Source: a virus
Lineage: Duplodnaviria; Caudoviricetes
DNA length: 56,329 nt
Reading direction: 5' to 3' (one strand)
IMG/VR virus record: IMGVR_UViG_3300031718_000014
Span: 1-56,329 of that record
Below, piece after piece: positions 381 through 44,904 of this stretch. The notes below the pieces were generated by a model that worked only from the letters and a program-made list of their open reading frames with translations, made no database searches and was not told the DNA's origin. A program made the translations under genes and the position numbers. Each line of letters starts with the position of its first letter. The first letter of the stretch is position 1.

Positions 381-2105
381 GTGGAACGATTTCTTTCCCG
401 CTGCTCTATCCGGGACCGCGACAGTCACGTCCGCATTCCCTTCGTTCTCAATTACAATCAGAAGCTCATTCATCAAAAGGCCAAAGAGCAGTACGAATCC
501 GGCCAGCCCGTTCGCATTCTCGTAGACAAGGCCCGTCGCGTCGGTGTCTCCTCTTGGTCCGAAGGTCTTCTCTTCTGCCACTGTCTCTCACTCCCCGGTT
601 CCCACGCTATGATAGCCGCTCACGAGTTCAAATCATCCAAAGCTCTGTTCTCCATACCAATGGGCTTCGCAGACTCTGTCCCGTTCCTCAACATAGACGC
701 AGTCGAACGTGAAATGCGCTTCCCTCATCCCTCTTCCGAATCTTTAATGCAGATTATAACCGCCGGAAAGAAAACCAGTGGCAGGGGCTTTACTTTGTCG
801 GCGCTCCACATGTCGGAAGGCGCTCACTACGAATCACCGGAACCTTACATCTCCATGCTCCCCGCTGTTTCTAATCACCGCAACACTATCGTCATCATCG
901 AGACCACACCAAACGGCATGGAAGGCGAGGGCGAGCCCTTCTATCAAATGTGGATGGATGCCATCGGCGGTAAGAACGATTACATCGCGGTCTTCCTCTC
1001 CTGGACCGACGATCCCGCCTGCATCGCTCCAGAAGAGATGGCCAAAGACGCTCCCATAGACGAAGAGGAGAAGGATCTCATCAAGCGCGGTCTATCCCGT
1101 TCCCAACTGGCATGGCGTCGTATGAAGATCAACTCTCCCGAGTGTGGTGGCTTCGTAGACAACTTCCATCAGGAGTTCCCCGTCACTTGGGAAGAGTCTT
1201 TCATTACTTCCGGTATGCCCGCTTTCACTCCCGAAGAAAAGCGCTGGGCTCGCAAGAACATTCGCCCTCCCAAATGGCAAGGTTTCCTAGAACGCCGTCT
1301 CACCGGGGCGTGGGATTTCCGTGAGCATTACAAAGGCGATCTGCGTATCTGGGAGGACCCAAAGTCGGGGCATTATTATTACATCGGTCTGGACGCCGCT
1401 CGTGGTGAAGAAGGGCGGGACTTCTCCGCTTCCGTCTGTTTCGACGGCAACACAGGGCACCAAGCGTTCACCTACGCAGCGCACTGCGTCCCCGAACACT
1501 TCTCCGCTTACATGAACTCAGCTGGTCGCCGTTACAACAAAGCTATGCTCAATCCAGAACTAACTGGCGGCTACGGGTACAACGTCCTTTCTAATCTGCG
1601 CGACGCGTTCCGTTACCCCAACCTCTACTATTGGAAGGGCAAGGACGACAAAGTAGCGGGGAGCACAACTCGCCGCACGTTCGGTTTCGAGACCACCGGC
1701 CACATGCGGACCGTCCTTTTTGAAACCATGCGAGCCTCCATTCGTGAAGCTGCTGGCACTGACGGCGATTACGGCGTCACCATCTACGACGAACAACTGG
1801 CCAGCCAAATCGACCTCTCCACTCGCAAGGACACTCGTATCGACGTAGAGAAGGGTCACGACGACATTCTGTTCGGTGCTATGCTAGCTAACATCGCCAT
1901 GAAGCACTGGGCTCCTCCTCGCAATCCCAATCCTTCCCGTGGCAAGGACGCCGAAGAAGAACGCGCTGCTTTACAGAAAATGCGCGATGACGGTTACGTG
2001 GTGGAAGACGATCACAAGCACGCGCTACAGCGTCATCACGACAAGATCGCCCGGTCCATCAAGTCTTATCGTAGCGACCGGGAATTGGAAATGGAGGAAG
2101 TCTAA
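381..2105 (+). CDS. terL: Terminase large subunit (possible true start ATA at 366)
   Basis: LNYNQ adenine motif, KARRVGVS Walker A, LHMSE Walker B, ETTPNG, IGLDAARG and HDDILFG nuclease motifs. Confidence 0.92.
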   Translation: MERFLSRCSIRDRDSHVRIPFVLNYNQKLIHQKAKEQYESGQPVRILVDKARRVGVSSWSEGLLFCHCLSLPGSHAMIAAHEFKSSKALFSIPMGFADSVPFLNIDAVEREMRFPHPSSESLMQIITAGKKTSGRGFTLSALHMSEGAHYESPEPYISMLPAVSNHRNTIVIIETTPNGMEGEGEPFYQMWMDAIGGKNDYIAVFLSWTDDPACIAPEEMAKDAPIDEEEKDLIKRGLSRSQLAWRRMKINSPECGGFVDNFHQEFPVTWEESFITSGMPAFTPEEKRWARKNIRPPKWQGFLERRLTGAWDFREHYKGDLRIWEDPKSGHYYYIGLDAARGEEGRDFSASVCFDGNTGHQAFTYAAHCVPEHFSAYMNSAGRRYNKAMLNPELTGGYGYNVLSNLRDAFRYPNLYYWKGKDDKVAGSTTRRTFGFETTGHMRTVLFETMRASIREAAGTDGDYGVTIYDEQLASQIDLSTRKDTRIDVEKGHDDILFGAMLANIAMKHWAPPRNPNPSRGKDAEEERAALQKMRDDGYVVEDDHKHALQRHHDKIARSIKSYRSDRELEMEEV

Positions 2106-3270: not shown

Positions 3271-3430
3271 TCCCGATCTGGCACCGCCCTGTTCCCACTG
3301 CGGACAGCCGATGCAGAAGAACACCGCTGTTTCTACTCCCTACGTCACCCAATTCATCTGTGCTTGCATGGGCACCGTTCACTTCGTTAACATTCACAAG
3401 GGAGACAAGACGCGAGAGGGTAAAACCTAA
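3230..3430 (+). CDS. Small zinc-ribbon-like protein (CSHC...CAC), putative ACG start
   Basis: Typical codon usage in the 3' part; GGAG 6 nt before ACG; TAATG coupling to portal. Confidence 0.5.
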   Translation, partial: TTSQSNPVPLGSSNPDLAPPCSHCGQPMQKNTAVSTPYVTQFICACMGTVHFVNIHKGDKTREGKT

Positions 3431-4926
3431 TGGCTTTCACTGTCTTCCGCACTAGCAAGGGCGCTTCTCCCGAGCACACACCAGCCGATTCCGGTTCCGA
3501 GAAGGACCTTCGTTCCCGTCAGATAGATGAGTTGTGTCGGCTCTCTGACAACGCTCGCCGTGAGTTCTACGGTCCCAACCACGACGAAGACACTCGCCAA
3601 TTCTACAACCTTCTGGACAAGACCCGCCGCACCCCCACCTTTCGTCCGAAGATCAGCGCCCCTCAATTGCAAGTCCTTCTTCTCTCCGAGGCCGGAGACT
3701 TGACCGATAGCAGAGTCCGAGTCACTATCAACCATAAAGAGAATGGACGAGACAAAGAGCGCGAGCGAGCTTTTCAGGAGCATTGGCGACAGGAACAGTT
3801 CGATTTTGCCCTTCTCCAGTCGAAGATTTACTCTCAGTTCGCGGGCACTGCATTCATACAAGTTGGCTTCGATCCCCTGGCTAGACGTGGCGATGGCTCT
3901 GTCTGGATGGCAGCAAGGGAGCAGCGTTCCGTCTACTGCGACACAATTAGTCCTTGGCCAAACCATTGGAGCTGGCAAGTCGTAGAAGACCTGATGTACC
4001 TAGACGAGATCAAGCTGCGGTATCCAGACCGCGCCGATCAGATTAAGCCTCGCACAGCCAAAGCAGAACAACTGGCCGGGCCTCCTGCTGGCGGCATCGA
4101 GATGCCTCCCGGTCCCATGAGTGTGACCGTTCGTGGTCTGCCGGGTGGTGAGCAGTACAGCACAGACGGTGTTCTATCGGTCCGCACTCTGTTTGCCAAA
4201 GACTCTTCCATTGTCGAGCCGACCGACGCTCAAGTGGCCGCATTCGAGAAGCGCAACATGGTAGTGCCGAAGTATTTGCCGAAGTATCCTCTCGGTCGGA
4301 TGATCGTAGACTGCGAAGGCACCATTCTAGTAGACGGCCACTCCTGGGTTCCACTCGGTCTCATGTGGCCAGCCATCCCGGTCTGGTCCATGCCACCGTG
4401 GGACAACGTGTGGTGCCCGCCTCCGTCCAAATACAGCCGGTCGTTGCAAGAAGCAGGCGAACGCATGATGAGTCAGACTGAAGAGAACGCGCGACGCCTG
4501 AACAACGGCATGATCGTGATTAACGCCGCTTCCGACCTGACCGCTGATTCTGTCGGCGGTATGCCCGGTGAGATTCTGGTGATCTCCGCTAACTCTCCTC
4601 AGAACGCAGTAGAGATCAAGTACCCTGCTCCCATGCCCGCTCAGATGATCCAACTTCCTCAGACCTACTTCGCATTCCAGAAAGAATTGCAAGGTTTCAC
4701 TGCCGCACGCCAAGGGAATCCCGGTGCTGGTAACGTGGGCTCCGATCTATTTGATTCTGCCGTTAGTCAGTCTCAATCCATCACTCGCTTGCGATCCAAG
4801 CTGTTTAGTTACAGTGTCCAGAAAGCCGCCGAACTGGTCTTCTACACAATGTGCAAGTTCTACAAGAATCCTCGGCACTTCTATTCCAATTTAGCCCGTC
4901 AAGTCCCGGAGCAGAAATCCGCATGA
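3430..4926 (+). CDS. Portal protein, N-terminal/main part
   Basis: Position after terL, size, podovirus-portal-like segments (PKYPLGRMIV, NNGMIVI, GMPGEILV, KFYKNPR). Confidence 0.8.
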   Translation: MAFTVFRTSKGASPEHTPADSGSEKDLRSRQIDELCRLSDNARREFYGPNHDEDTRQFYNLLDKTRRTPTFRPKISAPQLQVLLLSEAGDLTDSRVRVTINHKENGRDKERERAFQEHWRQEQFDFALLQSKIYSQFAGTAFIQVGFDPLARRGDGSVWMAAREQRSVYCDTISPWPNHWSWQVVEDLMYLDEIKLRYPDRADQIKPRTAKAEQLAGPPAGGIEMPPGPMSVTVRGLPGGEQYSTDGVLSVRTLFAKDSSIVEPTDAQVAAFEKRNMVVPKYLPKYPLGRMIVDCEGTILVDGHSWVPLGLMWPAIPVWSMPPWDNVWCPPPSKYSRSLQEAGERMMSQTEENARRLNNGMIVINAASDLTADSVGGMPGEILVISANSPQNAVEIKYPAPMPAQMIQLPQTYFAFQKELQGFTAARQGNPGAGNVGSDLFDSAVSQSQSITRLRSKLFSYSVQKAAELVFYTMCKFYKNPRHFYSNLARQVPEQKSA

Positions 4927-5273
4927 GCGACCCATCAAATCCGTTTGCCGGTCTGTTAGAGAAAATCAACTCCAGTCCAGACGATAACCAAGACGGCAAA
5001 CAGACTGGGGGCGGTGACTCCTCTCGTCCTGACAAAGTCACATGGCAGCCTGACGAAGCCTCTGAGGACTATGATGTTCGCTTATCCGATGGTTCTATTC
5101 GCCCGCAGTCTGAGTCCGCTCTGCGTTCCATGGTCATTGAGCTTCGTAAGGCCAATTTGATCGACGCTCGTCACGCTCTGATGATGCTGGACATCCCGGA
5201 CGCGGACGAGATCGCAGATGCATTGGAGAAAGAATTACAACTCAGTGCGTTGGCAAAGTTGCAGAGAAAATGA
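4923..5273 (+). CDS. Portal protein C-terminal part, encoded as a separate ORF
   Basis: ATGA overlap; YDVRLSDGSIRPQS...LIDARHALMMLDIPDADEI resembles portal C-terminal regions. Confidence 0.65.
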   Translation: MSDPSNPFAGLLEKINSSPDDNQDGKQTGGGDSSRPDKVTWQPDEASEDYDVRLSDGSIRPQSESALRSMVIELRKANLIDARHALMMLDIPDADEIADALEKELQLSALAKLQRK

Positions 5274-5710: not shown

Positions 5711-5755
5711 AAGGAGATGCAACTGGCTGCATTGGCCAAGCTCCAACGCAAATGA
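5711..5755 (+). pseudogene. Orphaned duplicate of the portal C-terminus (KEMQLAALAKLQRK*)
   Basis: 12/14 aa identical to KELQLSALAKLQRK* at 5229-5273. Confidence 0.85.
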
Positions 5756-5997: not shown

Positions 5998-6261
5998 GTG
6001 CAGCAGCAGAATCAATCTACTAGTTTCGAGTTACTCTCTATCGACCCTTTGTACGACTCTGAAGGTTGGCGCTACGTCGAAGTAGCCGTCAACGGGGTGC
6101 GTGCTCTCCCATTCGCGTTCCACAAGACCGTGGCTTCCCAGTTCCCAACCGAAGACAGTCTGATGGCGTACCTCTGTCGTCAGGCCAAGACCATGATCGA
6201 ACGCTATGGTGATGCACGCAATCCCAAAATTCCCGATGCAAGGGAAGGAAGAGTCAACTGA
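5998..6261 (+). CDS. Hypothetical protein
   Basis: ORF with typical codon usage; no SD. Confidence 0.65.
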   Translation: MQQQNQSTSFELLSIDPLYDSEGWRYVEVAVNGVRALPFAFHKTVASQFPTEDSLMAYLCRQAKTMIERYGDARNPKIPDAREGRVN

Positions 6262-6291: not shown

Positions 6292-6369
6292 ATGGCCAAG
6301 CGTGGAGGCAGTATGCGTGGTAGGCACATGGGAAAGACTTCCACCCGTCGAGGGGGAAAGCGGTACTAA
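6292..6369 (+). CDS. 25-aa basic micro-peptide MAKRGGSMRGRHMGKTSTRRGGKRY
   Basis: AGGAG SD; not in the ORF track; C-terminus matches the 18794 peptide. Confidence 0.65.
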   Translation: MAKRGGSMRGRHMGKTSTRRGGKRY

Positions 6370-6447
6370 CGCAGTACCGCTGGCAGTACCGTCAAGGGGG
6401 ACTCTCCTCTCAGTGTGAGGATGACCTTGGCAGAAAGGAGTCCAACG

Positions 6448-6489
6448 ATGGCGCGACGCAGACATCGGCGCGGCGGAAAACGGAAGTAG
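6448..6489 (+). CDS. 13-aa basic micro-peptide MARRRHRRGGKRK
   Basis: AAAGGAG 7 nt before ATG; protamine-like composition. Confidence 0.6.
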   Translation: MARRRHRRGGKRK

Positions 6490-6596
6490 CTGCTGCCGAA
6501 CAATCGAAAGTCTCAGGTGGATTCGGATACGAAGCACGGGGATTGGGGCGGCGAAAATATCACGCTGCCCCTTCCGAGTAACAAAGGAGAACAAGG

Positions 6597-6797
6597 ATGC
6601 CTGACAAATTTAATGCCGGAAAGTACACAGAGTTGCTCACTCCCGTAGACGAAGAGGGCAATCGCACTAAGAACGATCCCCCGACCGCTAACCCTCCTCA
6701 AGAGATCGACCCCCCGGACCCGATGGGCCTGATGCACGGTCTGGATAAGGGAAACCGCTTGGCTAAGGACGGAAAGGCTCGACGCGACCGGAGTTAA
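6597..6797 (+). CDS. Small Pro-rich protein with basic tail
   Basis: AAGGAG SD. Confidence 0.7.
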   Translation: MPDKFNAGKYTELLTPVDEEGNRTKNDPPTANPPQEIDPPDPMGLMHGLDKGNRLAKDGKARRDRS

Positions 6798-6926
6798 ATG
6801 GCAGGTACTCCATCATCGAACGAAACAAGGGCACTTGCTGCGCGAGCGATGACTCGTAGAGCAAGACGCCGACAGTTGTTCGAGGATCAACGTAAGGCAG
6901 TACGTAGTTCGGGGAAGAGAAAGTAG
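6798..6926 (+). CDS. 42-aa basic peptide ending SSGKRK
   Basis: GGAG SD; exactly fills the gap between flanking ORFs. Confidence 0.65.
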   Translation: MAGTPSSNETRALAARAMTRRARRRQLFEDQRKAVRSSGKRK

Positions 6927-7370: not shown

Positions 7371-8186
7371 ATGGCATCGTTAGAAGAAATTCTGGCAAAA
7401 GCCGATCTGAACGACGACATCGCATTCGAGTTCGGTGGCAGCAAGTTCACCGTTGGGGACGTTCGTAAGTTGCGAAAAGGTTTGGACGCGGAGACCAAGA
7501 CCGCCAAGCAGAAGCGCGAAGAGGCTGAACAACTGGCCATCCAAGCGGCTACCTTACTGACACAATTACAGGAAGCCGAAGCCAAGGCCAAGGAAGCTGC
7601 TGCTGCACGCAAAGTGACCGAAGGCAATAACGGAGGCAATGCGAACGATTGGCGCAAGGACCCCTTCTACGCGCCCGTTGCCGAAGAACTGGCCCGCATC
7701 TCCGGTACTTACGACACCGCGATCAAAGAAGTCCGCGAACTGGCTGGTGCTCTCAAAAAGACCATGGACCAGTACAGTTCCGTTTACGCCTACGAACGCT
7801 TGCGTGCCCAGTACGACCGCAACGCCGACAAGTTGAAGGGCAAGGGGGAGTTCAAAGATCTGGCTAAGCAAGCAGTCGAGCGAAAGTTGCTCGATGACTA
7901 TGGTCTGCCCACTCTCGAACCTCTGATCTCCGAGCTGACTCTCCCCGAACGCATCGCCGCCGAACGCAAGGCAGCTGTGGACGAAGCCAAAGCCACTTGG
8001 GAGAAGGAACAGGCCGCGAGATCAGTGGCCAGCCAACGTCCTGGTGCTGCCGCTCGCTTCAGTGTCAAGAAGGACGAGAAGCCCCCGATTGCGAAAATCG
8101 AGGAACTCTCCAGTGAGAAAATCATGCAGGGCATCGCGGACGATCCCGAGTTCGCCAAACAGATGGCGGGAGAAACAGTTCAGTAG
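7371..8186 (+). CDS. Capsid scaffolding protein (putative)
   Basis: Charged coiled-coil protein before the capsid gene; strong SD. Confidence 0.7.
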   Translation: MASLEEILAKADLNDDIAFEFGGSKFTVGDVRKLRKGLDAETKTAKQKREEAEQLAIQAATLLTQLQEAEAKAKEAAAARKVTEGNNGGNANDWRKDPFYAPVAEELARISGTYDTAIKEVRELAGALKKTMDQYSSVYAYERLRAQYDRNADKLKGKGEFKDLAKQAVERKLLDDYGLPTLEPLISELTLPERIAAERKAAVDEAKATWEKEQAARSVASQRPGAAARFSVKKDEKPPIAKIEELSSEKIMQGIADDPEFAKQMAGETVQ

Positions 8187-8187
8187 A

Positions 8188-8703
8188 TCAACATGCCGGT
8201 TCGATTCCATATTCGGGTTCTTTGTTGTGGGGACAATAACCAAAAAACCCCAGCGAACAGTTGCAGTTGTAACAGAGAACCCGAAAGTCGTCAGGGAAAC
8301 CGTGACGGATTATCCAGAGATAAAGGTCCGTCGAATTTGTCAATTTCGCATCTCTTCGATGCTTGTTCCCACCGCCTTTTACGTGGTCGATTGACAAGAA
8401 CTCGATGCGGGTCTCTCCACAACACGCGCACAGTCTGCCGTAGTGATCGAAAATCAGTTCGCGCTGTTTTATTTTATAATTCAAAATCCTCGCACGGTTT
8501 TCTTCCGGATGCTTTGCTCGCCACTTGGCGCTGTATTCGTTCGTCTTTCCAGGATGAGCGTCTAGCCATTTGCGAGTGTTTGCTTTCTGTTGTTCCTTAT
8601 GTGTCGCATAGTATTTTTTGCAATTTGCGAGGATTTGTTCGCGCTTTGCGAGATACCTCTCTCTGGCTTTCTGTCGAGCGACTTCTGGATCTTTGTAAGG
8701 CAT
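8188..8703 (-). CDS. HNH endonuclease
   Basis: CACCGE...LSIDHV...VLCYNCN...CPH; GGAGG SD; antisense insertion. Confidence 0.88.
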   Translation of the reverse strand: MPYKDPEVARQKARERYLAKREQILANCKKYYATHKEQQKANTRKWLDAHPGKTNEYSAKWRAKHPEENRARILNYKIKQRELIFDHYGRLCACCGETRIEFLSIDHVKGGGNKHRRDAKLTNSTDLYLWIIRHGFPDDFRVLCYNCNCSLGFFGYCPHNKEPEYGIEPAC

Positions 8704-8752
8704 TTGTCCTCCCAACCGGCTTTGTAGAGTTTACCACAAAAGGAGAACTAAC

Positions 8753-9736
8753 GTGGCCTCAGTAACAGGTACCGGTATAAGTACGCCACCTGCACAGTTA
8801 GTTAATACCGTGCAAGCTATTGTGCAAAAGTTTATTGCCCCCGTTCTCGGTGATCAAATTCTGTTACCAAGTCCGACCATGTGGGCTCTTGTCCGTCGTG
8901 GCAAGAAGATGGCTGGCGGCGCTCTGGTCTACCCGGAGTTCTTCTCTGAGGAAACCACCGGTGGCGCTTACTACGGCGCTCAATTGCTCAACACTGCCCT
9001 ACAAGATGTCGTCACCCCGGCTGAGCAGCAGTGGCGGTTCTATTACGAAGCCGTGGTCATTCCGTACACCGACATCATCCTAGGCCGTGGCGGTTACGCC
9101 GGTGTCGATATCGTGCGCCAGAAGTTCCAGACGGCAGCCGGGTCCTTCATGCAGAAGCTGGCCCGCGCTCTGTGGCACACTTCCCCGCAAAACACTTCCC
9201 TGGACATCGACGACATCAACTCATGGCTGGGTCTAACCACCAACAACATCGCCGGGATCGACCGCTCACAAGCAGTCAACGCTTACTGGAAACCTCAAGC
9301 GAACGTCTCCGCTGGCAATGCCAACCTGACCATAGCCAACGCGGACGCGGCCTATTGGTCCACTGTCTTCGGTTACGACGAGCCCGACTTGATGGTCGGG
9401 GATAACACTCGTTTCGCCAACTTCAAGCAAGCCTTCGTCGGCAACATCCGTTATGAGGGTAACATCCAGGACAAGGAAGCGTTGCAAGGCGGCTTCCGTT
9501 ACCACTTCCTGTTCAACAACTGCATCGTGCTCGCAGACCGCAACGCTCCGGCGAACGCGTTCTATATTATGAACACCAAGTACATGTTCCCGGTGTTCCA
9601 CGAAGCCGATTACTTCACTATCGATCCTTGGGTCAAACCAAGTAATCAACGTGTGCTGGTGTCAAATATCTACCTCACGTGGCAATTGGCCGATATGTCG
9701 CCGCGCATGGGAGTAGAAATCACGAACGCTTCCTAA
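8753..9736 (+). CDS. Major capsid protein
   Basis: 327 aa after the scaffold, AAGGAG SD, capsid-like segments (NIAGIDRS, EPDLMV, FYIMNTKY). Confidence 0.82.
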   Translation: MASVTGTGISTPPAQLVNTVQAIVQKFIAPVLGDQILLPSPTMWALVRRGKKMAGGALVYPEFFSEETTGGAYYGAQLLNTALQDVVTPAEQQWRFYYEAVVIPYTDIILGRGGYAGVDIVRQKFQTAAGSFMQKLARALWHTSPQNTSLDIDDINSWLGLTTNNIAGIDRSQAVNAYWKPQANVSAGNANLTIANADAAYWSTVFGYDEPDLMVGDNTRFANFKQAFVGNIRYEGNIQDKEALQGGFRYHFLFNNCIVLADRNAPANAFYIMNTKYMFPVFHEADYFTIDPWVKPSNQRVLVSNIYLTWQLADMSPRMGVEITNAS

Positions 9737-18793: not shown

Positions 18794-18955
18794 ATGGCAC
18801 GAATACGATTCGGCGGTGACGGCGTTCACGACGGCGAACCTTCCGCGCAATCTCACGGTGAAGAGATGATGGCACCGGGAGTACGGCCTCACAAGCGTAA
18901 GGGCAAGAGGGGCGGTGGCCGGAAACACTCGCGCAAGGGTGGCAAGCGGTACTAA
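18794..18955 (+). CDS. 53-aa peptide with basic tail ending RKGGKRY
   Basis: TAAGGAGGT SD; not in the ORF track. Confidence 0.7.
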   Translation: MARIRFGGDGVHDGEPSAQSHGEEMMAPGVRPHKRKGKRGGGRKHSRKGGKRY

Positions 18956-18956
18956 G

Positions 18957-19139
18957 ATGGCCAGGAGAAGGAAACGCAGTCTGGTCTCTCAGAAGATCAG
19001 CCGTTTGGTGCGCGAGGAACACGTTCCGCAACGCCAAGCTATAGCTATGAGCCTGTCCATGAACCGTGCTCATCGCTTGCGTCCGGGAGGGGTTTACAAA
19101 CACGTTAGAAAGTCACGAAGAAAAGGGAGGAGGATGTGA
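18957..19139 (+). CDS. 60-aa basic protein (MARRRKR...QAIAMSLS...RRKGRRM)
   Basis: Starts 1 nt after the previous stop. Confidence 0.7.
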   Translation: MARRRKRSLVSQKISRLVREEHVPQRQAIAMSLSMNRAHRLRPGGVYKHVRKSRRKGRRM

Positions 19140-28582: not shown

Positions 28583-28786
28583 ATGATCCTGACCAATGCA
28601 CTGTCGGTCAACAACGACAGGATTGACATAGACTCAAGCGCCATCGAGGTGGTGTACGAGAACAGCAGTGTGGTAGGTGGATGCGTGGTCGTACTGAAGA
28701 GTGGGGAGACTTACTTGGTGAGGGAAGACTTTGAGACCATAAGGAGATTAAGAGATGACGCTGCCACTCAGTCCACTGGGACGTAG
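28583..28786 (+). CDS. Small FlbD-like protein
   Basis: IDIDSSAIEVV...VVLKSGETYLVREDFETI pattern; start uncertain. Confidence 0.5.
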   Translation: MILTNALSVNNDRIDIDSSAIEVVYENSSVVGGCVVVLKSGETYLVREDFETIRRLRDDAATQSTGT

Positions 28787-29525
28787 ATACGGGTACAGAC
28801 CTAATCCACCGGATCACAGGGATTACGGACTAAGCAGGATAGAGCTGGTCAGAACACTTCCTACGGCGTTCTCGCTGAAAGACTCTCTAGGTCCGGTCAA
28901 GGACCAGGGCGACGAAGGGAGCTGCACTGCTCATGCTGGGACAGAGAATCTGGAGTTCTTGTACCGCAAGTACAAACACTCGGAACCCATATTTAGTCCC
29001 GCCTTCCTCTATTATCAGGAGAGAGTAATAGACGGAGATCCGAACTACGACGGCGGTTCTACTGGCCGGTCGTCTTGTCAGGCCATGCACAACTACGGGG
29101 TCTGCCTGGAAAGCCAAGACCCCTATGTGGCAGGACAGTATGCGATCCCACCCACAGCAGAACAGGTCCAAGATGCTTTGCAATACAAGTCAGGAGCGTA
29201 CCACTTCCTGACTACGGTCGGGGACATCAAAGCGTGCATTGCTAGTGGATACTGTGTGATGGTTGGGTTCACTGTCTATCAGAGTTTCGAGAGCATTGGC
29301 AGCGATGGCTTGATGCCTACTCCAGACAAGAATGCCGAACAGGTGCTAGGTGGCCATGAAACCTTGATTTACGGATACGATGACGCTACCGGACTACTCA
29401 GCATTCTCAATTCGTGGGGTCCGTCGTGGGGCGATGCCGGATCGTTCAAGATGAAATACAGTGACGCCGCTGATTCTGATATTGTGATGGACTTGGTGAT
29501 TCAACACTTAGGGCTGCCATGGTAA
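28755..29525 (+). CDS. Papain-like (C1A) cysteine peptidase
   Basis: VKDQGDEGSCTAHA, GGHETL and NSWG catalytic motifs. Confidence 0.9.
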   Translation: MTLPLSPLGRRYGYRPNPPDHRDYGLSRIELVRTLPTAFSLKDSLGPVKDQGDEGSCTAHAGTENLEFLYRKYKHSEPIFSPAFLYYQERVIDGDPNYDGGSTGRSSCQAMHNYGVCLESQDPYVAGQYAIPPTAEQVQDALQYKSGAYHFLTTVGDIKACIASGYCVMVGFTVYQSFESIGSDGLMPTPDKNAEQVLGGHETLIYGYDDATGLLSILNSWGPSWGDAGSFKMKYSDAADSDIVMDLVIQHLGLPW

Positions 29526-29728
29526 TCATTCTCCCTGGCACCCCAATCGACCGCGCTCTATGGGGAGTGTGGGTCATCATGTTCGCAGTTCTTGAAGGTG
29601 TGGGAATCGCTCGCAAGTGGGGCTCAACCAGCTTGACCCGACTGACACTGGCAATAGTTCCGCGTTGGGCGCTTGCAATGGGACTTGGATGGACTGTTTA
29701 CCATTTTCTCATCCAGTACAGTCATTGA
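29519..29728 (+). CDS. Small membrane protein
   Basis: Two hydrophobic segments. Confidence 0.6.
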   Translation: MVIILPGTPIDRALWGVWVIMFAVLEGVGIARKWGSTSLTRLTLAIVPRWALAMGLGWTVYHFLIQYSH

Positions 29729-30240
29729 AAATTTAGATGGGCAAATTCACCAAACATACTCTTGGCAGCTTCATCATAGACTCTCGCTGCAATCTCCTTG
29801 CTTCGATAAAATCCAAGGGCCTTAGTTTTCCCGTGAATTCTGATAGACGCATACCATTTGTTTTTTACCTTGTCCCACGAAACTCCTTTGAAGCCACTGC
29901 GATTGTTGCTACGTATCTTCTGATTTCTATGATTCTGACTACCTACGGCACGTCTCAAATTGCTACGTCGATTGTCAAGGGTATCGTGGTTGCGATGGTC
30001 AGCTTGCTCCCACTTATTACAGTCAAGGATAAGGCGGTGCATGTATATTCCAGACGACCTTCGTTTAGCGTAAAAGCCGCCCATGGAATTTGGCAGAGCG
30101 GTCCAATTCCACTGGTTAAGCCATTCAAAATCGGCAGTGTCTACAAGGGCATTTTGTCTTTTGGTAAGTGGAATAATCTTGTAAGATGGGTCTCGCGGCT
30201 GGGTGACTGCGTGACGCTTCACGCGGTATTTTCTAGGCAT
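29722..30240 (-). CDS. HNH-AP2 homing endonuclease
   Basis: YMHRLI...DHRNHDTLDNRRSNLR plus AP2 domain SGFKGVSW...AARVYDEAA. Confidence 0.92.
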   Translation of the reverse strand: MPRKYRVKRHAVTQPRDPSYKIIPLTKRQNALVDTADFEWLNQWNWTALPNSMGGFYAKRRSSGIYMHRLILDCNKWEQADHRNHDTLDNRRSNLRRAVGSQNHRNQKIRSNNRSGFKGVSWDKVKNKWYASIRIHGKTKALGFYRSKEIAARVYDEAAKSMFGEFAHLNFQ

Positions 30241-30288
30241 CGGTCCTCCTTGAAAGGATCGCTGTTACCAGCCGCATTCTAACATACA

Positions 30289-30762
30289 ATGTCACTCGAT
30301 AACATCTCGCTTGCCAGACTAGCTGAAGTCCACCCGGTCTTGTCGGCTCGTGTTCAGAGTTTGGCATCGCAGCTGGATTTCCCTATCAGGGTCACGCAGG
30401 GCATTCGGACAGTTGCTCAACAGAACGCTCTGTGGCAGGAAGGCCGGGATAACGATGGGAATGTGATTGGTAGGACCGTGACGAATGCTAAGGGTACTGA
30501 GAGCAATCACGTCATGGGAGTAGCGGTAGACGTAGTGCCAATGGATCTGCCGGACGATCACCCGGACTGGGACGAAAACTCAGCGTCATGGCAGAGGATA
30601 GTAGCATTGGCTTCGTCATGCGGATTGAGGGATGGCAAGAGCTTCCATGACGAGCCTCATCTGGAACTGATGGAAGTACCGGAAGTTCCTACTGAGGAAA
30701 TTCAGAGTATCTATCTTCAGGCCGGAGCGATGGCAGTGTGGCAGGAGTTGAATATCGCTTAG
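30289..30762 (+). CDS. Endolysin, M15 family peptidase
   Basis: GIRTVAQQNALW..GR, SNHVMGVAVD, DEPHLE. Confidence 0.88.
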   Translation: MSLDNISLARLAEVHPVLSARVQSLASQLDFPIRVTQGIRTVAQQNALWQEGRDNDGNVIGRTVTNAKGTESNHVMGVAVDVVPMDLPDDHPDWDENSASWQRIVALASSCGLRDGKSFHDEPHLELMEVPEVPTEEIQSIYLQAGAMAVWQELNIA

Positions 30763-34947: not shown

Positions 34948-36486
34948 CTATTTTTCAAGGGAAGCCCAATTATTTGCAAACGCCACATGGACTCCGATAG
35001 GAACGACCAGAGGGTAAGCCGTTTCCATGATCTCTTTGACCTCGTTCCCGGCATAGGTCTTCAGGAAGTCGTGGTCAGTCAGCTCGAACAGCAATTCGTC
35101 GTGGACTTCCAGTATGGGCTCCAACCGGAACTCACTGAAGTCCCGCCAGAACTCCAATAGCCACTGCCAGATACGAGCTTCCATGATCTTCTTCAGACAG
35201 TGAGCACTCGACTGCACTACGTGAGTAAAGCTCTGACGTTCGGCCTCCGTTTTCAGCGACTCAATGGCCGAATGGATGTTAGGCAGGTATCTGATCCGGC
35301 CAAACATGTCTTTCACGTAACCGTGACGGCGGCAGAACTCCATCTCCTTCTTCTGCCACGCACGGACACCGGAATAGATGTCCAGCCACGATTCTATCAG
35401 CCAGTCACACTCTTCGACGGTACGCGGGTCGCCACCCAGCTCCTGGTACTTGTCGAACTGAGCGGACAGACCCACCCCAGTGATGCCGTTGCAGATTCCA
35501 AACCCGGTACGTTTGGCTGGACCACGGTGCTTGTTCTTGTCTACCTTGCTGACTGGGATCTTGAATATCTCCGCTGCGGTCTCAGTATGAATATCCTTGC
35601 CCGAATGGAACATGTCGATTAACTTAGCGTCACCTGACAGGTGTGCCGTCACCCGGAGAAACCACTGATCCAAGTCGAACGTCCCTAGAACACAACCCTC
35701 CGGTGCAATGAACCCTCTGCGAATCTCCTTCCCGATCTCACTAGCCACAGGGATAGCCAACAGGTTAGGATCGTAAGCAGCGGTCTGACCGTTAGGTGAC
35801 GAAGTGAGAGAGAAGCGGGAATAGATGCGACTGTCATCGTGGACCCACGGTAGCATTCCGTCCACGTAAGTTCCTTTGAGTTTCTGCAATTCCCGATAGT
35901 CTAGGATCATGGGAACGATGGGGTGCTTCTTGCGATTGCCTTGCAGAGCTTTCTCGTCCGTGGACTCTCTCTTCCGGCTCTTTGTCATTCTGGTAGTGGT
36001 CAGGCCCAGCTTCTTGTAAAGTAGATCTGCCACCTGATCCCCGGAGTTGGGATTAATGTGCCCCATTTCAACGTGTTCCCCGACTAGGGAGTCGATCTCA
36101 CCACCCTTGATCTCCAGTAGCGCATCCAGGTACTCACCAAATTGATGGAAGTGTTGGGGATCGACCATGGTCCCATTGCGGTGCATCCGTTCGTAGTAGG
36201 GGATTACAGCGAGGTCTATCTCTTCCACTCTTCCCAGATCCAGACCACTATGTGCGCGACTAAGTTCAGGATAAATGCGACAAGTACAATCCGCATCGCG
36301 AGCAGCATAACGAACCGCCTTGTTTAACGGGATGTCGTCTAAAGTTGCGGACGGGATCGTGCCCCAAGCGGCTTCAATGTCCTTGCAACGGTCTGGGAAG
36401 TCCGCTCTAATCTTCTCCCAGATCCCTTTCGGATTTTCTGAGACAATGGCGTTTTGGATTCTTCTGGCCAGTGATTGCTTACCCAA
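34948..36486 (-). CDS. Family A DNA polymerase (ExoIII motif plus polymerase domain), divergent active site
   Basis: YAARDAD, INPNSGDQV, YRELQKLKGTY, GKEIRRGF, GYVKDMFGRIR, VHDELLFE; GAGGT then TTG. Confidence 0.9.
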   Translation of the reverse strand: MGKQSLARRIQNAIVSENPKGIWEKIRADFPDRCKDIEAAWGTIPSATLDDIPLNKAVRYAARDADCTCRIYPELSRAHSGLDLGRVEEIDLAVIPYYERMHRNGTMVDPQHFHQFGEYLDALLEIKGGEIDSLVGEHVEMGHINPNSGDQVADLLYKKLGLTTTRMTKSRKRESTDEKALQGNRKKHPIVPMILDYRELQKLKGTYVDGMLPWVHDDSRIYSRFSLTSSPNGQTAAYDPNLLAIPVASEIGKEIRRGFIAPEGCVLGTFDLDQWFLRVTAHLSGDAKLIDMFHSGKDIHTETAAEIFKIPVSKVDKNKHRGPAKRTGFGICNGITGVGLSAQFDKYQELGGDPRTVEECDWLIESWLDIYSGVRAWQKKEMEFCRRHGYVKDMFGRIRYLPNIHSAIESLKTEAERQSFTHVVQSSAHCLKKIMEARIWQWLLEFWRDFSEFRLEPILEVHDELLFELTDHDFLKTYAGNEVKEIMETAYPLVVPIGVHVAFANNWASLEK

Positions 36487-37481
36487 TTATGCACCTCAAT
36501 TAGCCACTGAATCTTCTTCTCTTTGTCCGCTTCCCCGATCACGTCTTCGTAATCGTCCTGAACCATCCCGCATAGCCTGCGACTGAGTGGCTTGAGTCCC
36601 TGTGGAAACAAACACAGGTGGTATGCTTTAACCATGGTGTCGGTGAACCGGAACCCCTCTATTCCCATGGAACGCAGAACGGCAATGTCGTGGAAAGCGT
36701 TGTGTAATACGACTGTGACTCCATTCCATTTTACATAGTCAGCAATAGCACTAAGCCATTCCTTGTCGCTTGCCAGAACCACGTATCCTTCTCCGATACC
36801 AAAAGTAAAACTCAATCCCCATGGTTTCTCTGCCGATCCCTCGGTGTCCATGTAGATTAGAGTAGGGTTCTTCCTGCCATGGAAGATCAAACTGAACAGT
36901 TCTCTAGAGTAATCCGTGAGTAACATGTACTGAGGATCAGGGCAAGTGTCGATCAAGTGGTCTGCACTACCAGACGCTCCCCGAACCATCCGGCAGAACG
37001 CTTGGAAGTCCGACCAGACTAGCGGAGTCATGCTAGCCGAATGGAGTCCGAACGCGGGATGGTACAGGGGCATCATGCGGAAACGGCCCTGTGACGAGAC
37101 GAACGGCAGACCGTGACTCCAGTCCATCTCCAGATCGCCCCCAAGGAAGTAACGCGCTGCGAAACGGCCTACTAGACCAATGTACTTGGGTCGGACGGTC
37201 TTCAACTCTTCGATCAGGAAGTGTTCATCCCGTCTGATCTCGTCCGGTGTGGGGTCTGGATTCCCCTTCAGGAAGTCTTTGCACAGATTAGTGCAATACA
37301 CATCGTCCCGATGGATGCCGCCTTCCAAGAGGTAACGGTCCAGTTCCTTGCCCGACTTCCCGCAGAAGGGGTAACCGCGACGGGACTCCTCTTCTCCCGC
37401 ACGTTCTCCCAAAATAAGTACATCACATGGCACGGGGCCACGTCCCCAGACGTACTTTAGTTGACTTGGTTTCGTTTCCAT
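36339..37481 (-). CDS. Uracil-DNA-glycosylase-like domain fused to 3'-5' exonuclease (ExoI/II); N-terminal half of the split polymerase
   Basis: GERAGEEE..GYPFCGKSG, YCTN, YHPA; MDTE, HNAFHD, DTMV. Confidence 0.85.
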   Translation of the reverse strand: METKPSQLKYVWGRGPVPCDVLILGERAGEEESRRGYPFCGKSGKELDRYLLEGGIHRDDVYCTNLCKDFLKGNPDPTPDEIRRDEHFLIEELKTVRPKYIGLVGRFAARYFLGGDLEMDWSHGLPFVSSQGRFRMMPLYHPAFGLHSASMTPLVWSDFQAFCRMVRGASGSADHLIDTCPDPQYMLLTDYSRELFSLIFHGRKNPTLIYMDTEGSAEKPWGLSFTFGIGEGYVVLASDKEWLSAIADYVKWNGVTVVLHNAFHDIAVLRSMGIEGFRFTDTMVKAYHLCLFPQGLKPLSRRLCGMVQDDYEDVIGEADKEKKIQWLIEVHNWVSNHWPEESKTPLSQKIRKGSGRRLERTSQTVARTLKPLGARSRPQL

Positions 37482-42287: not shown

Positions 42288-44750
42288 TTACTTCTCTAAG
42301 GGTTTGGGTATTACTTTACAAATCTCGACTGCTTCAGCAAACCACTTCGGAGCGAACTTCTTGAACTTAGGCCAGAACCACTCAAAGTGGTCGTCAACCA
42401 CTAAGACCTCCGACCAGTCGTCCTCGCTCCTAGTACTTCTCCCTGCCATCTGAACGATCTCCTGCATCGCTTGGTACATAGGATAGTCTCTGTCCCGGTC
42501 GCTGCGAGCCTTGGTGACTAAGTCTCTAGTGTCTGGGAACGGGACTTTGCACAATATCTGCCAGCGACACTCGGAGTCTGGAAAATCAAACCCGGTACTA
42601 ACGCTCGGGCTCACGAGTATGGCCGGGGCTTTGGTCCCTTTAAATCTTCGTATGGTGTCTTGGGAGGACTCTCGTGTGTGGACGAGCATATGCTCTGCGA
42701 ACTCGCTGTTTCTAGCGATCCACTGCGCTCTTTGATAGGAAACAGCGTGGATAATTCCCTTCCCTTGTAGTCTGGGCCTGACGATAGCGTCGATCTTCGA
42801 TATCCAGGCTCGTAAGTGCCCCGGTGTGGCTCGCTTGTCCATGCGTACACTAGGGACAAAATAGACAGGACGCCTACCCACTGGAAAGCTGGAAGGGTAC
42901 TCCCGAAAGTCCACATCGCCATGACCAATACCCAGAAGTTCAAGAGTCTTCGGACGAATCGTGGCGGAGGTAAGAACGACTCTCTTAATCCCACAGAACA
43001 GCCTCCTTTCGGCATAGTCGGCAGGCCACACCGGATCGAAGCGGGCTACTAGGCTCCCGCTGGGTCCTCGCCGCGTCACTTGAAAGACCCAGTCTCCCTG
43101 AGCGGACGATAACTGCGCCAGTTTCCGCTCAAGTTTCTTGAGATGCTTCGCTTGATGCACGGCCCACCGACTGTCGCCGTTATTAGCCAAACCGCCCTTT
43201 ACAGCCGCCTCAAGGTCTTCTCGCTGCGACCGGGCACGGTCCAGCCAAACTCTTGCCGTCAACTTCCATGGTTCAAAGTTAATTAGTTCGGGGAAACGGT
43301 CCTCGTCTACTAACTCCAAGTCGCTAGGGAATAGTTCTACTGCCAGATAGTTACTAAGTTGGTCCAGCGCATCGTGAGCCTCGTCTAGTACCAGCATCCC
43401 GAACGCACCGAGACCGCCGCCGTGTTCCATTTGGTGCATCCAATAGGAGTAGTTGGTAGAGACTAGAGTAACTTGTCTGGCCAACTTCACACGGTCGAAG
43501 TAGACGCAGCCGCTTTCCTTCAACTCGCAGCGAACTCCACCGTGGCACGGTCCTTCGTCGCACTTGATCTCGTCCGCAAAGTCTGTTTGAACATCACGCA
43601 GAGTGATAGTCCGACCGTTCGCTTTGTACAGGCAGGGGTAATTGTTCTGACCACGAACGTCCAATAGACCGCTATCCCCAAAGTCCTTCTCCAACTGATT
43701 CTGCAACCCTCTGGTACTGGTCAGGAATGCGGTACGTTCCCCAGACAATTGCGCCGCTGCCAGATAAGCCAGTGATTTGCCGGAGTTATGCACCACCATT
43801 CCGTTTGCGACAAAGTTTTCGTGCGGTTCACAAGCTATTAGGTCGTATACCTCTTCACTTATTTGCGCTCTCTTGACCCACGATACACGAACCTCTTTAG
43901 GTATCCCTTGATGGAAACTGGTGTGATCTCCATGTAATTTCTGGTGAGCCTCGTGCGTAAGAACCTGCAAGTTATCCAAGTCGTTGTGCGAGCTATCTTC
44001 ATCTCGATGGTGGACGGCAAAAATCTCTGGATCAAGGAATGTTAGTCCTTTTGTATTTCCCCTTCGGCAAACTTCTATGAACTCGTCTATGAATAAGCCG
44101 TTAAGGTTTGCTTCGACAACGATGCAGTGATAAGGAACGCGGTACAACCTGCCTTCCACATGGTTTCCTCTGTGTCTATAAGAACCGGAGTTTCCAGCGT
44201 AGGGATGGTTTTTTAATCCTTGAATTTGTCGATACTGTGCTTTGTGGTGCTTCTTTCCGTTTGATCGCGGTCTTGGTGTATCGCAGATCACTTCATCTGT
44301 GGAGACCAAATCCTCAATGCAAACAAAGCCTCGTGACGTGAGAACCTGATGATCGGGAGTTGCTCGCAATGACTTACCATCACGCAGGGTTAAAAGGACA
44401 GTTTCGCGCCGTCCTGAATAACCTACAGATGAAAATTCGTGAAGTCTTATCTCTTTGCCGTCGAAGCTTCGCGTAAAGGGAAGAATGCCTCTAGCTCTGC
44501 GATTGATATGGTTCTGTTGACAATAAAATTCCTGTTCAATTGTTCGCTGAATACTATTCTTCGCCCGATTCACTTGGACGATAGTGTCCCCAACCACACA
44601 GCCGGTTGGGAGTGCCAGCACCACAAACCGCTTGGTACTCTCAACCGCCCGTAGCGCAGCGTCCTCTTGCCCTGGTCGCCATGACTCAAAGCGTTCTGGC
44701 AGTCCCAACCCACTGGGCTCTGGGAGTATTCCGATGGAACTAACTGGCAA
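42288..44750 (-). CDS. DinG/Rad3-like SF2 helicase containing an intein
   Basis: RPGQ, PTG[intein]SGKS, DEAH, LTSAT, GFDFP, KVPFP, QMAGRSTRSEDD; AGGAG then TTG. Confidence 0.9.
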   Translation of the reverse strand: MPVSSIGILPEPSGLGLPERFESWRPGQEDAALRAVESTKRFVVLALPTGCVVGDTIVQVNRAKNSIQRTIEQEFYCQQNHINRRARGILPFTRSFDGKEIRLHEFSSVGYSGRRETVLLTLRDGKSLRATPDHQVLTSRGFVCIEDLVSTDEVICDTPRPRSNGKKHHKAQYRQIQGLKNHPYAGNSGSYRHRGNHVEGRLYRVPYHCIVVEANLNGLFIDEFIEVCRRGNTKGLTFLDPEIFAVHHRDEDSSHNDLDNLQVLTHEAHQKLHGDHTSFHQGIPKEVRVSWVKRAQISEEVYDLIACEPHENFVANGMVVHNSGKSLAYLAAAQLSGERTAFLTSTRGLQNQLEKDFGDSGLLDVRGQNNYPCLYKANGRTITLRDVQTDFADEIKCDEGPCHGGVRCELKESGCVYFDRVKLARQVTLVSTNYSYWMHQMEHGGGLGAFGMLVLDEAHDALDQLSNYLAVELFPSDLELVDEDRFPELINFEPWKLTARVWLDRARSQREDLEAAVKGGLANNGDSRWAVHQAKHLKKLERKLAQLSSAQGDWVFQVTRRGPSGSLVARFDPVWPADYAERRLFCGIKRVVLTSATIRPKTLELLGIGHGDVDFREYPSSFPVGRRPVYFVPSVRMDKRATPGHLRAWISKIDAIVRPRLQGKGIIHAVSYQRAQWIARNSEFAEHMLVHTRESSQDTIRRFKGTKAPAILVSPSVSTGFDFPDSECRWQILCKVPFPDTRDLVTKARSDRDRDYPMYQAMQEIVQMAGRSTRSEDDWSEVLVVDDHFEWFWPKFKKFAPKWFAEAVEICKVIPKPLEK
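43785..44600 (-). mobile_element. Intein (272 aa) with HNH endonuclease domain
   Basis: N-terminal CVVGDT, block B ATPDH, VYDL...NFVANGMVVHN followed by Ser; VHHRDEDSSHNDLDNL. Confidence 0.93.
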
Positions 44751-44904
44751 CTTGTGTTTGCTCCTGTGGCTTTGGTGTTCCACTGCCTTTGCATCGGTGG
44801 TGCGTTCGCTTGTTCCTGTGATCCACAATGGTTCCGTCCGACCACAGACGTACCAGTCTGCCGCACACGTCGCAGGGTATTCGGATCTCACTTTGAGTTT
44901 TCAT
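44740..44904 (-). CDS. 54-aa zinc-finger-like protein (CDVC...H...CKGSG)
   Basis: TAATG-coupled, GGAG SD; not in the ORF track. Confidence 0.6.
   Translation of the reverse strand: MKTQSEIRIPCDVCGRLVRLWSDGTIVDHRNKRTHHRCKGSGTPKPQEQTQVAS

Follow-up and report, generated by a model that had tools for sequence, protein, structure and literature searches.

The Microviridae protein J is a phage-encoded polypeptide of a few dozen residues, extremely basic and produced late, which neutralises the genome inside the capsid. The polyamines putrescine and spermidine are found in T-even and lambda particles, while the internal proteins of T4 carry an N-terminal capsid-targeting sequence that is removed by the prohead protease. 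The subject of this article is a locus of a tailed phage, IMG/VR virus record IMGVR_UViG_3300031718_000014 (Duplodnaviria; Caudoviricetes), whose whole stretch of 56,329 nucleotides (nt) was analysed and is called “the window” below. Between its portal and major capsid genes lie tiny open reading frames (ORFs) for basic peptides, here named A, B and C, and two further small basic ORFs, D and E, stand about 12 kb away (Table 1). Among viruses of eukaryotes, adenovirus pVII has been called “protamine-like” (PMC10548178) and baculovirus P6.9 is presented as a viral core protein (PMC5899202).

A first-pass annotation, made from the letters alone, had listed A, B and C as three ORFs with good Shine-Dalgarno (SD) sequences between portal and scaffold, had pointed to a distant peptide ending in GGKRY, and had proposed a family of DNA-condensing or charge-neutralising internal capsid peptides, with a shared C-terminal motif as a possible encapsidation or processing signal. 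The coordinates, translations and SD sequences of the three ORFs were all verified, and the distant peptide, D, exists as well. All three do lie between the portal and capsid genes, but “scaffold” is a positional name without a family match. Compared across relatives, A, B and D form a new family of conserved micro-genes for polycations, which is restricted to one lineage and accompanied by an RNA control element.

Conserved micro-genes for basic peptides

Relatives were collected by scanning viral contigs with the capsid protein, which yielded 21 loci at 47–85% identity, 20 of which reach the A/B interval (L012 does not). One more, L051, with about 90% DNA identity to the window, was added by a metagenome scan with the protein of the neighbouring gene o6927, and two others, L043 and L047, were found through the B motif itself; these two are excluded from the count for B and included in that for A. 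All 21 relatives that were found without use of the motif have a B-type ORF with its SD in the corresponding position, in 12 distinct sequences, and an A-type ORF occupies its position in 21 of 23 loci, L011 and L013 having no A. The portal-to-capsid gene order is kept among the capsid-found loci, and the micro-genes are preserved in synteny as ORFs with their SDs. In L016–L020 the A and B peptides and their coordinates are identical.

Further evidence comes from the codons of B. Eight phages encode an identical 15-residue B, and 11 of its 45 coding columns are variable, all of them third codon positions. These eight genes differ by at least 15 substitutions, every one synonymous against a random expectation of 27%, although the sequences are related, so that the substitution events are not fully independent. 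Across the last eight codons of B in 12 close relatives, seven of the eight positions are spelled in two to four ways. At the level of its amino acids, B is thus subject to strong purifying selection. Conservation of A is looser: a comparison of four long-form sequences counts 23 substitutions in codons that still specify the same amino acid and 21 in codons that specify another, Lys/Arg exchanges included. A nevertheless keeps a shared core, RGRxMGK...TSTRRG, and conservation in the peptides is concentrated in their middle or C-terminal portions. In composition, A has 9 Lys or Arg among 25 residues and B has 8 among 13, neither has Asp or Glu, and the computed isoelectric point (pI) is 12. 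The net charges of the micro-peptides run from +8 to +10 with few or no acidic residues, and the peptides compared below with protein J measure 12–40 amino acids (aa) and have charges of +8 to +9. The start codon of A overlaps the stop codon of the preceding gene o5998 (TGATG) in at least six relatives (L001, L002, L006, L007, L015 and L047). In the window A and B share a frame and are separated by one stop; a readthrough fusion of the two was set aside, since their frames differ in L001 and L005. The proteins of the o6597 family, encoded downstream of B, also end in basic tails in relatives.

Chance controls were of unequal force. The window holds six stop-to-stop frames ending in G[KR][KR][KRY], while 200 shuffles gave a mean of 0.78 ± 0.90 and a maximum of 4, none reaching 6. 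By another count, SD-led ATG ORFs of 12–60 aa with a net charge of at least +7, taken on both strands of the window, are four in number, namely A, B, C and D and no others; 100 shuffles averaged 1.09 ± 0.94 such ORFs and gave 4 at most. Since that maximum equals the observed value, the number of basic SD-led ORFs is weak evidence when taken alone, and for A, B and D it is conservation between genomes that is decisive. The C-terminal motif fared unevenly: an ending GG[KR]R[KY] does recur in A, B and D, but it is strictly kept in B only, where HRRGGKRK ends the peptide in 11 of 12 close relatives and a single H-for-R change accounts for the other. The endings of A vary (GGKRY, GGRY, GGR, TRR), as do those of D (KRY, KRE, RRK, KRA). 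RRGGKR is spelled with different codons in the paralogues.

D is built of an acidic or neutral N-terminal half and a polybasic C-terminal half. It has five database homologues at 69–98% identity, of which three bear the name “hypothetical protein” and two have none. Its counterparts can also be recognised by position: in G001 and G002 they immediately follow the homologue of o17062, and in G003 and G004 they stand upstream of that of o19247; these counterparts share an acidic patch of the (H/Y)GEE type followed by a polybasic tail. E, which the first-pass annotation had not listed, has a 60% identical homologue in G005 (E-value 7e-14), two database homologues and no Pfam family. A tblastn search with D and E against 50,697 phage records gave nothing useful. 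Small basic ORFs are found at other places too: a 56-aa ORF ending RRSGRRY follows D directly in G002 (23612–23442, minus strand), and lineage-specific ones stand after the capsid gene in L013 (8551–8655) and in L018 and L020 (10359–10445).

Peptide C tells a different story. It has no tblastn match in the 21 loci, no homologue in a search of 5.8 billion proteins, and no second copy in the window or the loci. Its ORF exactly fills a 129-nt insertion found only in the window genome; in L051, 90% identical, about 5 nt lead from the stop of o6597 to the start of o6927, and C is absent. C is thus a recent 129-nt insertion, which may still be coding, the one sign of it being that the ORF fills it exactly. 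In L011 and L013 the slot before o6927 holds unrelated basic ORFs of 46 and 36 aa. The proposed family of basic internal peptides is accordingly narrower than first drawn: A, B and D are conserved, very basic and placed in the structural module, while C, once counted as the third member, is an orphan insertion peculiar to this genome. From the comparison of relatives, A, B and D are genuine genes encoding polycations predicted to be unstructured, of 13–60 residues if E is counted, and E itself is probably another micro-gene of the late structural operon.

How far does the family reach? The exact DNA pattern for HRRGGKRK followed by a stop occurs in 11 viral contigs, nine of them from the capsid-gene relatives and two new (L043 and L047), both of which carry the A/B locus. 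A profile of 17 A peptides, run against 1.84 billion representative proteins, gave three matches, all of the A family; such a search is blind to the short forms, since gene callers seldom report peptides below about 30 aa. Protein databases do contain D and three members of the A family, as unnamed or hypothetical proteins. For 11 peptides of the A, B and D types there is no Pfam family even at an E-value of 10 or less and no PHROG match, and the best score in the ESM Atlas, 0.77, did not rise to what chance would give. Among cultured phages, Myxococcus Mx8 and Mx9 and Stenotrophomonas BUCT555 come nearest, with a capsid identity of 26–29%, and the structural regions of Mx8 and BUCT555, at 26–27%, have no basic micro-ORF between the portal and capsid genes. 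The capsid protein found no prophage relative or clue to the host among 185,579 genomes, and a neighbouring 572-aa protein gave nothing useful against viral contigs. Within these searches, the peptide family appears confined to an uncultured, podovirus-like lineage of soil phages. In the literature, part of which was available and in which older phage biochemistry may be missed, no report was found of gene-encoded polycationic micro-peptides in tailed-phage heads; one review (PMC11323111) contains no occurrence of “arginine”, “basic”, “positively charged”, “packag” or “condens”.

A structured RNA element ahead of B

The spacer between A and B folds better than its shuffles (z = -3.0). Folded alone, the region upstream of B's SD adopts the same architecture in 19 of 19 sequences, in which an outer stem, P1, encloses a 5′ internal loop and an inner hairpin, P2, immediately followed by the SD itself (AGGAG, 6436–6440). 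The sequence of P1 differs between relatives. The 5′ internal loop reads GGGGACUCU in the window and UUUGCGAUCU in most relatives, and it is complementary to B's SD and to the bases that follow it, so that the two can pair as a pseudoknot. When the three helices are laid on an alignment of 12 sequences, 89.3% of the cells are paired, against 37–49% in slid controls. Eleven of the 19 pairs have changed on both sides, and none of 500 shuffles reaches any of these measures. Changes on both sides affect seven of eight pairs in P1 and three of four in P2. The loop–SD helix is itself 92.9% paired and shows one clear swap, a C-G pair being replaced by G-C in three sequences (the window, L003 and L043), and other loops and SDs are matched to one another, such as AGUCUCC with GGAGACU in L014. 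A structured RNA with a predicted loop-to-SD pseudoknot, supported by covariation, thus precedes B. Against Rfam 15 its sole match was RF01074, at 20.3 bits where the gathering score is 40 (E-value 0.66).

Such a pseudoknot probably couples B's translation to that of A or limits it. P1 begins 8–13 nt past the stop of A in 13 of 17 sequences, and 21 nt past it in the window. Together with the overlap of o5998 and A, this would make a chain of translational coupling from o5998 to A and from A to B, for which autoregulation by the peptides is an alternative. At 6360–6380 of the window the stop codon of A lies in the loop of a separate 7-bp hairpin (GCGGUAC / GUACCGC), which is also present in L051.

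Past the end of B, all 17 aligned sequences show a GGGG...CCCC hairpin that lacks a U tract, of which a consensus fold recovers only three pairs; a consensus terminator scan returned 0 sites. It may be a terminator, an attenuator or an mRNA-stabilising hairpin. B does not fit the leader peptide of an attenuator or a regulatory upstream ORF, in which conservation would be limited to the regulatory codons and the ORF would overlap alternative terminator/antiterminator structures: the whole of B is kept through synonymous changes, including its Gly, His and Lys, the downstream hairpin does not overlap the ORF, and terminator-like sites number zero.

What the peptides may do

The role that we consider most likely, on the grounds of composition and gene position, is that of late-made polycations entering DNA-filled heads as counter-ions. 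A, B and D, and probably E, would be translated from the late structural operon together with the head proteins, with o5998 coupled to A through the overlapping stop and start. Ribosomes ending at A's stop would reach the outer stem 8–13 nt downstream, which holds B's SD shut, and would thereby couple B to A. Tiny and highly cationic, the peptides would bind nucleic acid without sequence preference, enter the heads with the DNA or through capsid pores, accumulate there much as polyamines do, but as gene-encoded counter-ions, and lower DNA–DNA repulsion. The reality of the genes, their late-operon position, their extreme positive charge, the paralogues with their turnover of slots and the controlled translation of B are what lead us to propose this non-specific binding. 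Several slots hold basic micro-ORFs, and which ones are present changes from one sub-lineage to another (L011/L013, L013, L018/L020, G002), a turnover that fits a bulk-charge role better than a lock-and-key one. Neither a targeting signal nor a protease would be needed, and the GG[KR]R[KY] end would be part of a DNA-binding surface rather than a tag.

This last point bears on the processing signal suggested in the first-pass annotation, for which no partner turned up. PHROG and Pfam scans of the window revealed no prohead protease. A papain-family C1 cysteine peptidase (PF00112, E-value 5.5e-14, above the curated cut-off) is encoded at 28755–29525 on the plus strand, near the endolysin and without an obvious signal peptide, but it has no tblastn match in any of five complete relatives that have the peptides. 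A dedicated maturation protease was thus rejected as an explanation, this peptidase being restricted to the window genome.

As for expression, a soil RNA library contains four contigs at least 99% identical to the window, at 6017–6169, at 6327–6550 and, for two of them, in the capsid gene; the second runs from the end of A through the hairpin and covers B completely. In this library, X1, 13% of the sampled words and these four contigs only were recovered, the uncovered parts being uninformative, and the contigs are weakly indicative, compatible with transcription without proving it.

Several observations weigh against the counter-ion model and the expression scheme that goes with it. The RNA library may contain DNA, and its contigs give no expression level. 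The advantage of cognate loop/SD duplexes is modest (-8.85 against -7.48 kcal/mol, a difference reached by 14 of 10,000 permutations), and with nested folding the SD is no more likely to be paired than in shuffles for most of the 17 sequences tried; nested folding was accordingly rejected as a way of sequestering the SD, and only the pseudoknot model with its covariation holds. By simple arithmetic, even 10% neutralisation of the 112,658 phosphates would require each head to take up about 1,400 copies of B, a number several times that of the capsid subunits, while an SD-occluding pseudoknot suggests that B's translation is restrained. No member beyond B is universal, A being absent in L011 and L013 and C in the closest relative. 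The strict conservation of B, His and Gly-Gly included, exceeds what a pure charge role needs. With the copy-number demand set against the SD-occluding structure and the strictness of B, we hold the counter-ion model tentatively, at somewhat short of an even chance. A bolder form of it, on which we are more doubtful, is that a lineage of tailed double-stranded DNA phages encodes “protamines” of its own. Polycations of 13–60 residues would be made in fixed proportion through coupled o5998–A–B translation and the SD pseudoknot, ride in with the DNA or pass through pores, replace polyamines and tune packing and ejection pressure; D would be self-neutralised, and the pseudoknot may sense free peptide.

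If instead A and/or B were arginine-rich regulators of structured late mRNA, small counterparts of arginine-rich-motif peptides that bind their own operator (the bulged hairpin before B) or the G/C hairpin after B and so set translation or termination, several features would fall into place. A conserved hairpin with a pyrimidine-rich internal loop adjoins the genes and involves B's SD, a second one stands 3′ of B in every relative, the sequence of B is strictly kept beyond its charge, and autoregulation would account for an SD-occluding structure on a potentially toxic polycation. We nevertheless think this unlikely, since the stems and part of the loop vary while B stays identical, which is odd for a specific peptide–RNA pair; moreover D and E have no such element upstream, and neither multiple paralogues nor lineage-specific extras would be expected of a regulator. 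That slots and numbers vary between sub-lineages also speaks against head-assembly cofactors, low-copy and structural or chaperone-like, which would attach, as procapsids assemble, to acidic surfaces inside the capsid, on the scaffold or on the C-terminal domain of the portal. Thirteen residues, of which about 60% are Lys or Arg and none hydrophobic, likewise offer little for specific docking on a protein. The genes do lie between portal and scaffold and are coupled to o5998, itself conserved; the protein of the separate ORF for the portal C-terminus has a strongly acidic composition (pI 4.48, net -10), the neighbours of the o6597 family have basic tails as well, and restrained translation of B fits a low copy number, so that the cofactor role, though a slimmer prospect than regulation, deserves some weight.

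Polycationic peptides generally bind DNA, RNA and anionic lipids, and late peptides might as well act on the nucleic acids, ribosomes or envelope of the host, through compaction of the nucleoid, a block of defence nucleases or disruption of the outer membrane at lysis. Their genes, however, belong to the head or virion module, away from the endolysin region (28755–30762) and outside the early/replication module on the opposite strand, and the peptides have no hydrophobic or amphipathic character, which makes a host target improbable. What if the peptides did nothing at all, the ORFs being translated spacers that pass ribosomes along, or having arisen by chance on top of a conserved element in the nucleic acid? 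Handing on ribosomes can be the sole function of a short coupled ORF, and at least one of 100 shuffles reaches the count of four basic SD-led ORFs. This is nonetheless very hard to reconcile with 11 variable columns in B that are all third positions and leave the amino acids unchanged, with one peptide motif written in different codons in paralogues 12 kb apart, with six motif-ending frames where 0.78 are expected, and with a HRRGGKRK-stop pattern whose 11 viral contigs include two new ones that both have the A/B locus; we give it next to no credence.

Whatever the role, genes of 12–25 codons under strong purifying selection, and invisible to standard gene callers, lie here in the best-studied kind of phage operon. 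They offer a clean and testable case of functional micro-proteins, short enough to be synthesised and assayed directly, and the 57-nt hairpin/pseudoknot is a compact device, supported by covariation, that would control a downstream cistron. Packaging of the peptides, if it occurs, would place tailed phages beside adenoviruses, baculoviruses and microviruses as users of dedicated polycations, with a bearing on the physics of DNA packing and ejection; if the “protamine” reading is true, this would be the first protein-mediated neutralisation of genome charge in Caudoviricetes.

Genome setting and comparison with known systems

The window is a 56.3-kb phage record with a G+C content of 53%. A, B and C sit in the plus-strand stretch that leads from the portal to the major capsid gene, D and E lie on the same strand as A and B within a block of large, mostly unnamed genes 3′ of the capsid gene, and the replication genes are on the minus strand. 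The AlphaFold model of o5998 is a small, confident alpha/beta fold (predicted local distance difference test 85.1), with no match in the PDB at an E-value of 0.001 or less.

Table 1. Positions of the micro-genes, RNA structures and neighbouring genes in the window
Feature	Coordinates	Strand	Basis or remarks
Large terminase	381–2105	+	window scan
Portal	3430–4926	+	phrog_156
o5998, 87 aa, conserved, function unassigned	5998–6261	+	tblastn matches in 14/21 capsid-found loci
Peptide A, MAKRGGSMRGRHMGKTSTRRGGKRY, 25 aa, net +9	6292–6369	+	SD AGGAG 8 nt before ATG
Structured RNA element	6391–6447	+	outer stem P1, 5′ internal loop, inner hairpin P2, SD of B
Peptide B, MARRRHRRGGKRK, 13 aa, net +8	6448–6489	+	SD AGGAG 7 nt before ATG
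G/C-rich hairpin 3′ of B, just before the SD of the next gene	6545–6571	+	folding
o6597, 66 aa, proline-rich, slightly acidic, basic C-terminal tail	6597–6797	+	tblastn matches in 11/21 loci
Peptide C, 42 aa, net +10, ends SSGKRK	6798–6926	+	SD GGAG 4 nt before ATG
Presumed “scaffold”	7371–8186		named by position only; without family match
Major capsid (head) protein	8753–9736	+	phrog_9953
Peptide D, 53 aa, ends GGKRY	18794–18955	+	SD AAGGAGG
Peptide E, 60 aa, MARRRKRS start, RKSRRKGRRM end	18957–19139	+	starts 1 nt past the stop of D

Other genes of the window and its relatives show signs of splitting and insertion. The C-terminal domain of the portal is a separate ORF (4923–5273), which matches positions 480–570 of the portal profile; in the window, L001 and L009 the start of this ORF and the stop of the portal overlap as ATGA, while L002, L004 and L005 have both parts in a single frame. 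The two frames matching one profile had raised the possibility of a programmed frameshift, which was rejected because the first ORF's TGA overlaps the ATG (4923) of a separate ORF, and the split portal is thus a gene fission. Next to it, an HNH endonuclease gene (PF13392, 5275–5661, minus strand) lies between two plus-strand ...ALAKLQRK-stop endings, at 5250–5273 and 5732–5755, one closing the portal C-terminal ORF and the other an ORF of 22 aa. The arrangement resembles the insertion of a homing endonuclease in which the 3′ end of the target was duplicated. A second endonuclease-like gene (8188–8715, minus strand), with weak matches to PHROG endonuclease VII, is found between the presumed scaffold and the capsid gene. 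The capsid-gene match is itself about 200–240 nt longer in L009 (7001–8172), L010 (7001–8201) and L015 (6980–8195), with residues 1–20 set apart from residue 21 onward, which suggests an insertion, intron or mobile element, near codon 20. Among the replication genes, the family-A DNA polymerase is apparently split into overlapping minus-strand ORFs (36339–37481 and 34948–36486) that match consecutive PHROG profile positions (482–793 and 798–1234), and an 867-aa helicase (42288–44891, minus strand) has HNH endonuclease matches at residues ~291–354, ahead of its helicase domain (371–855).

Set beside described systems, the peptides resemble several and coincide with none. The T4 internal proteins and prohead-core genes are alike in that small components of the head interior are encoded between portal and scaffold, but they are not polycationic micro-peptides, and no prohead protease was found in the window. 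Arginine-rich-motif peptides and SD-occluding operators recall the present arrangement in having an Arg-rich peptide beside a bulged hairpin, an SD within a conserved structure and an upstream cistron ending close to the stem; here, contrary to those systems, the RNA matches no Rfam family, and both the binding between peptide and RNA and a dependence of B on upstream translation are putative. Adenovirus pVII and mu (pX), baculovirus P6.9 and the sperm protamines are likewise arginine-rich and disordered polycations; they are packaged with double-stranded DNA and condense it, as the phage peptides might. Those are proteins of eukaryotic viruses or of cells, pVII and mu being cut from precursors by a viral protease and P6.9 regulated by phosphorylation, while the phage peptides are encoded by separate micro-genes, with no conserved protease and, by the Pfam search, no homology.

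In size and charge the closest analogue of A and B is protein J of the Microviridae. J, however, belongs to small single-stranded DNA phages with F and G capsid proteins, while the genes of the window include those for a large terminase, a portal and a major head protein with a PHROG match, and the peptides have no Pfam match; J also has a hydrophobic C-terminus that anchors it to the capsid, where A and D often end in a single Tyr and B ends in Lys. In proposed mechanism it is the polyamines that come nearest, as small, diffusible polycations that neutralise part of the charge of packaged DNA without any targeting signal. They are metabolites of the host, however, whereas the polycation proposed here would be gene-encoded, larger (+8 to +10 per molecule) and under the control of the phage itself.

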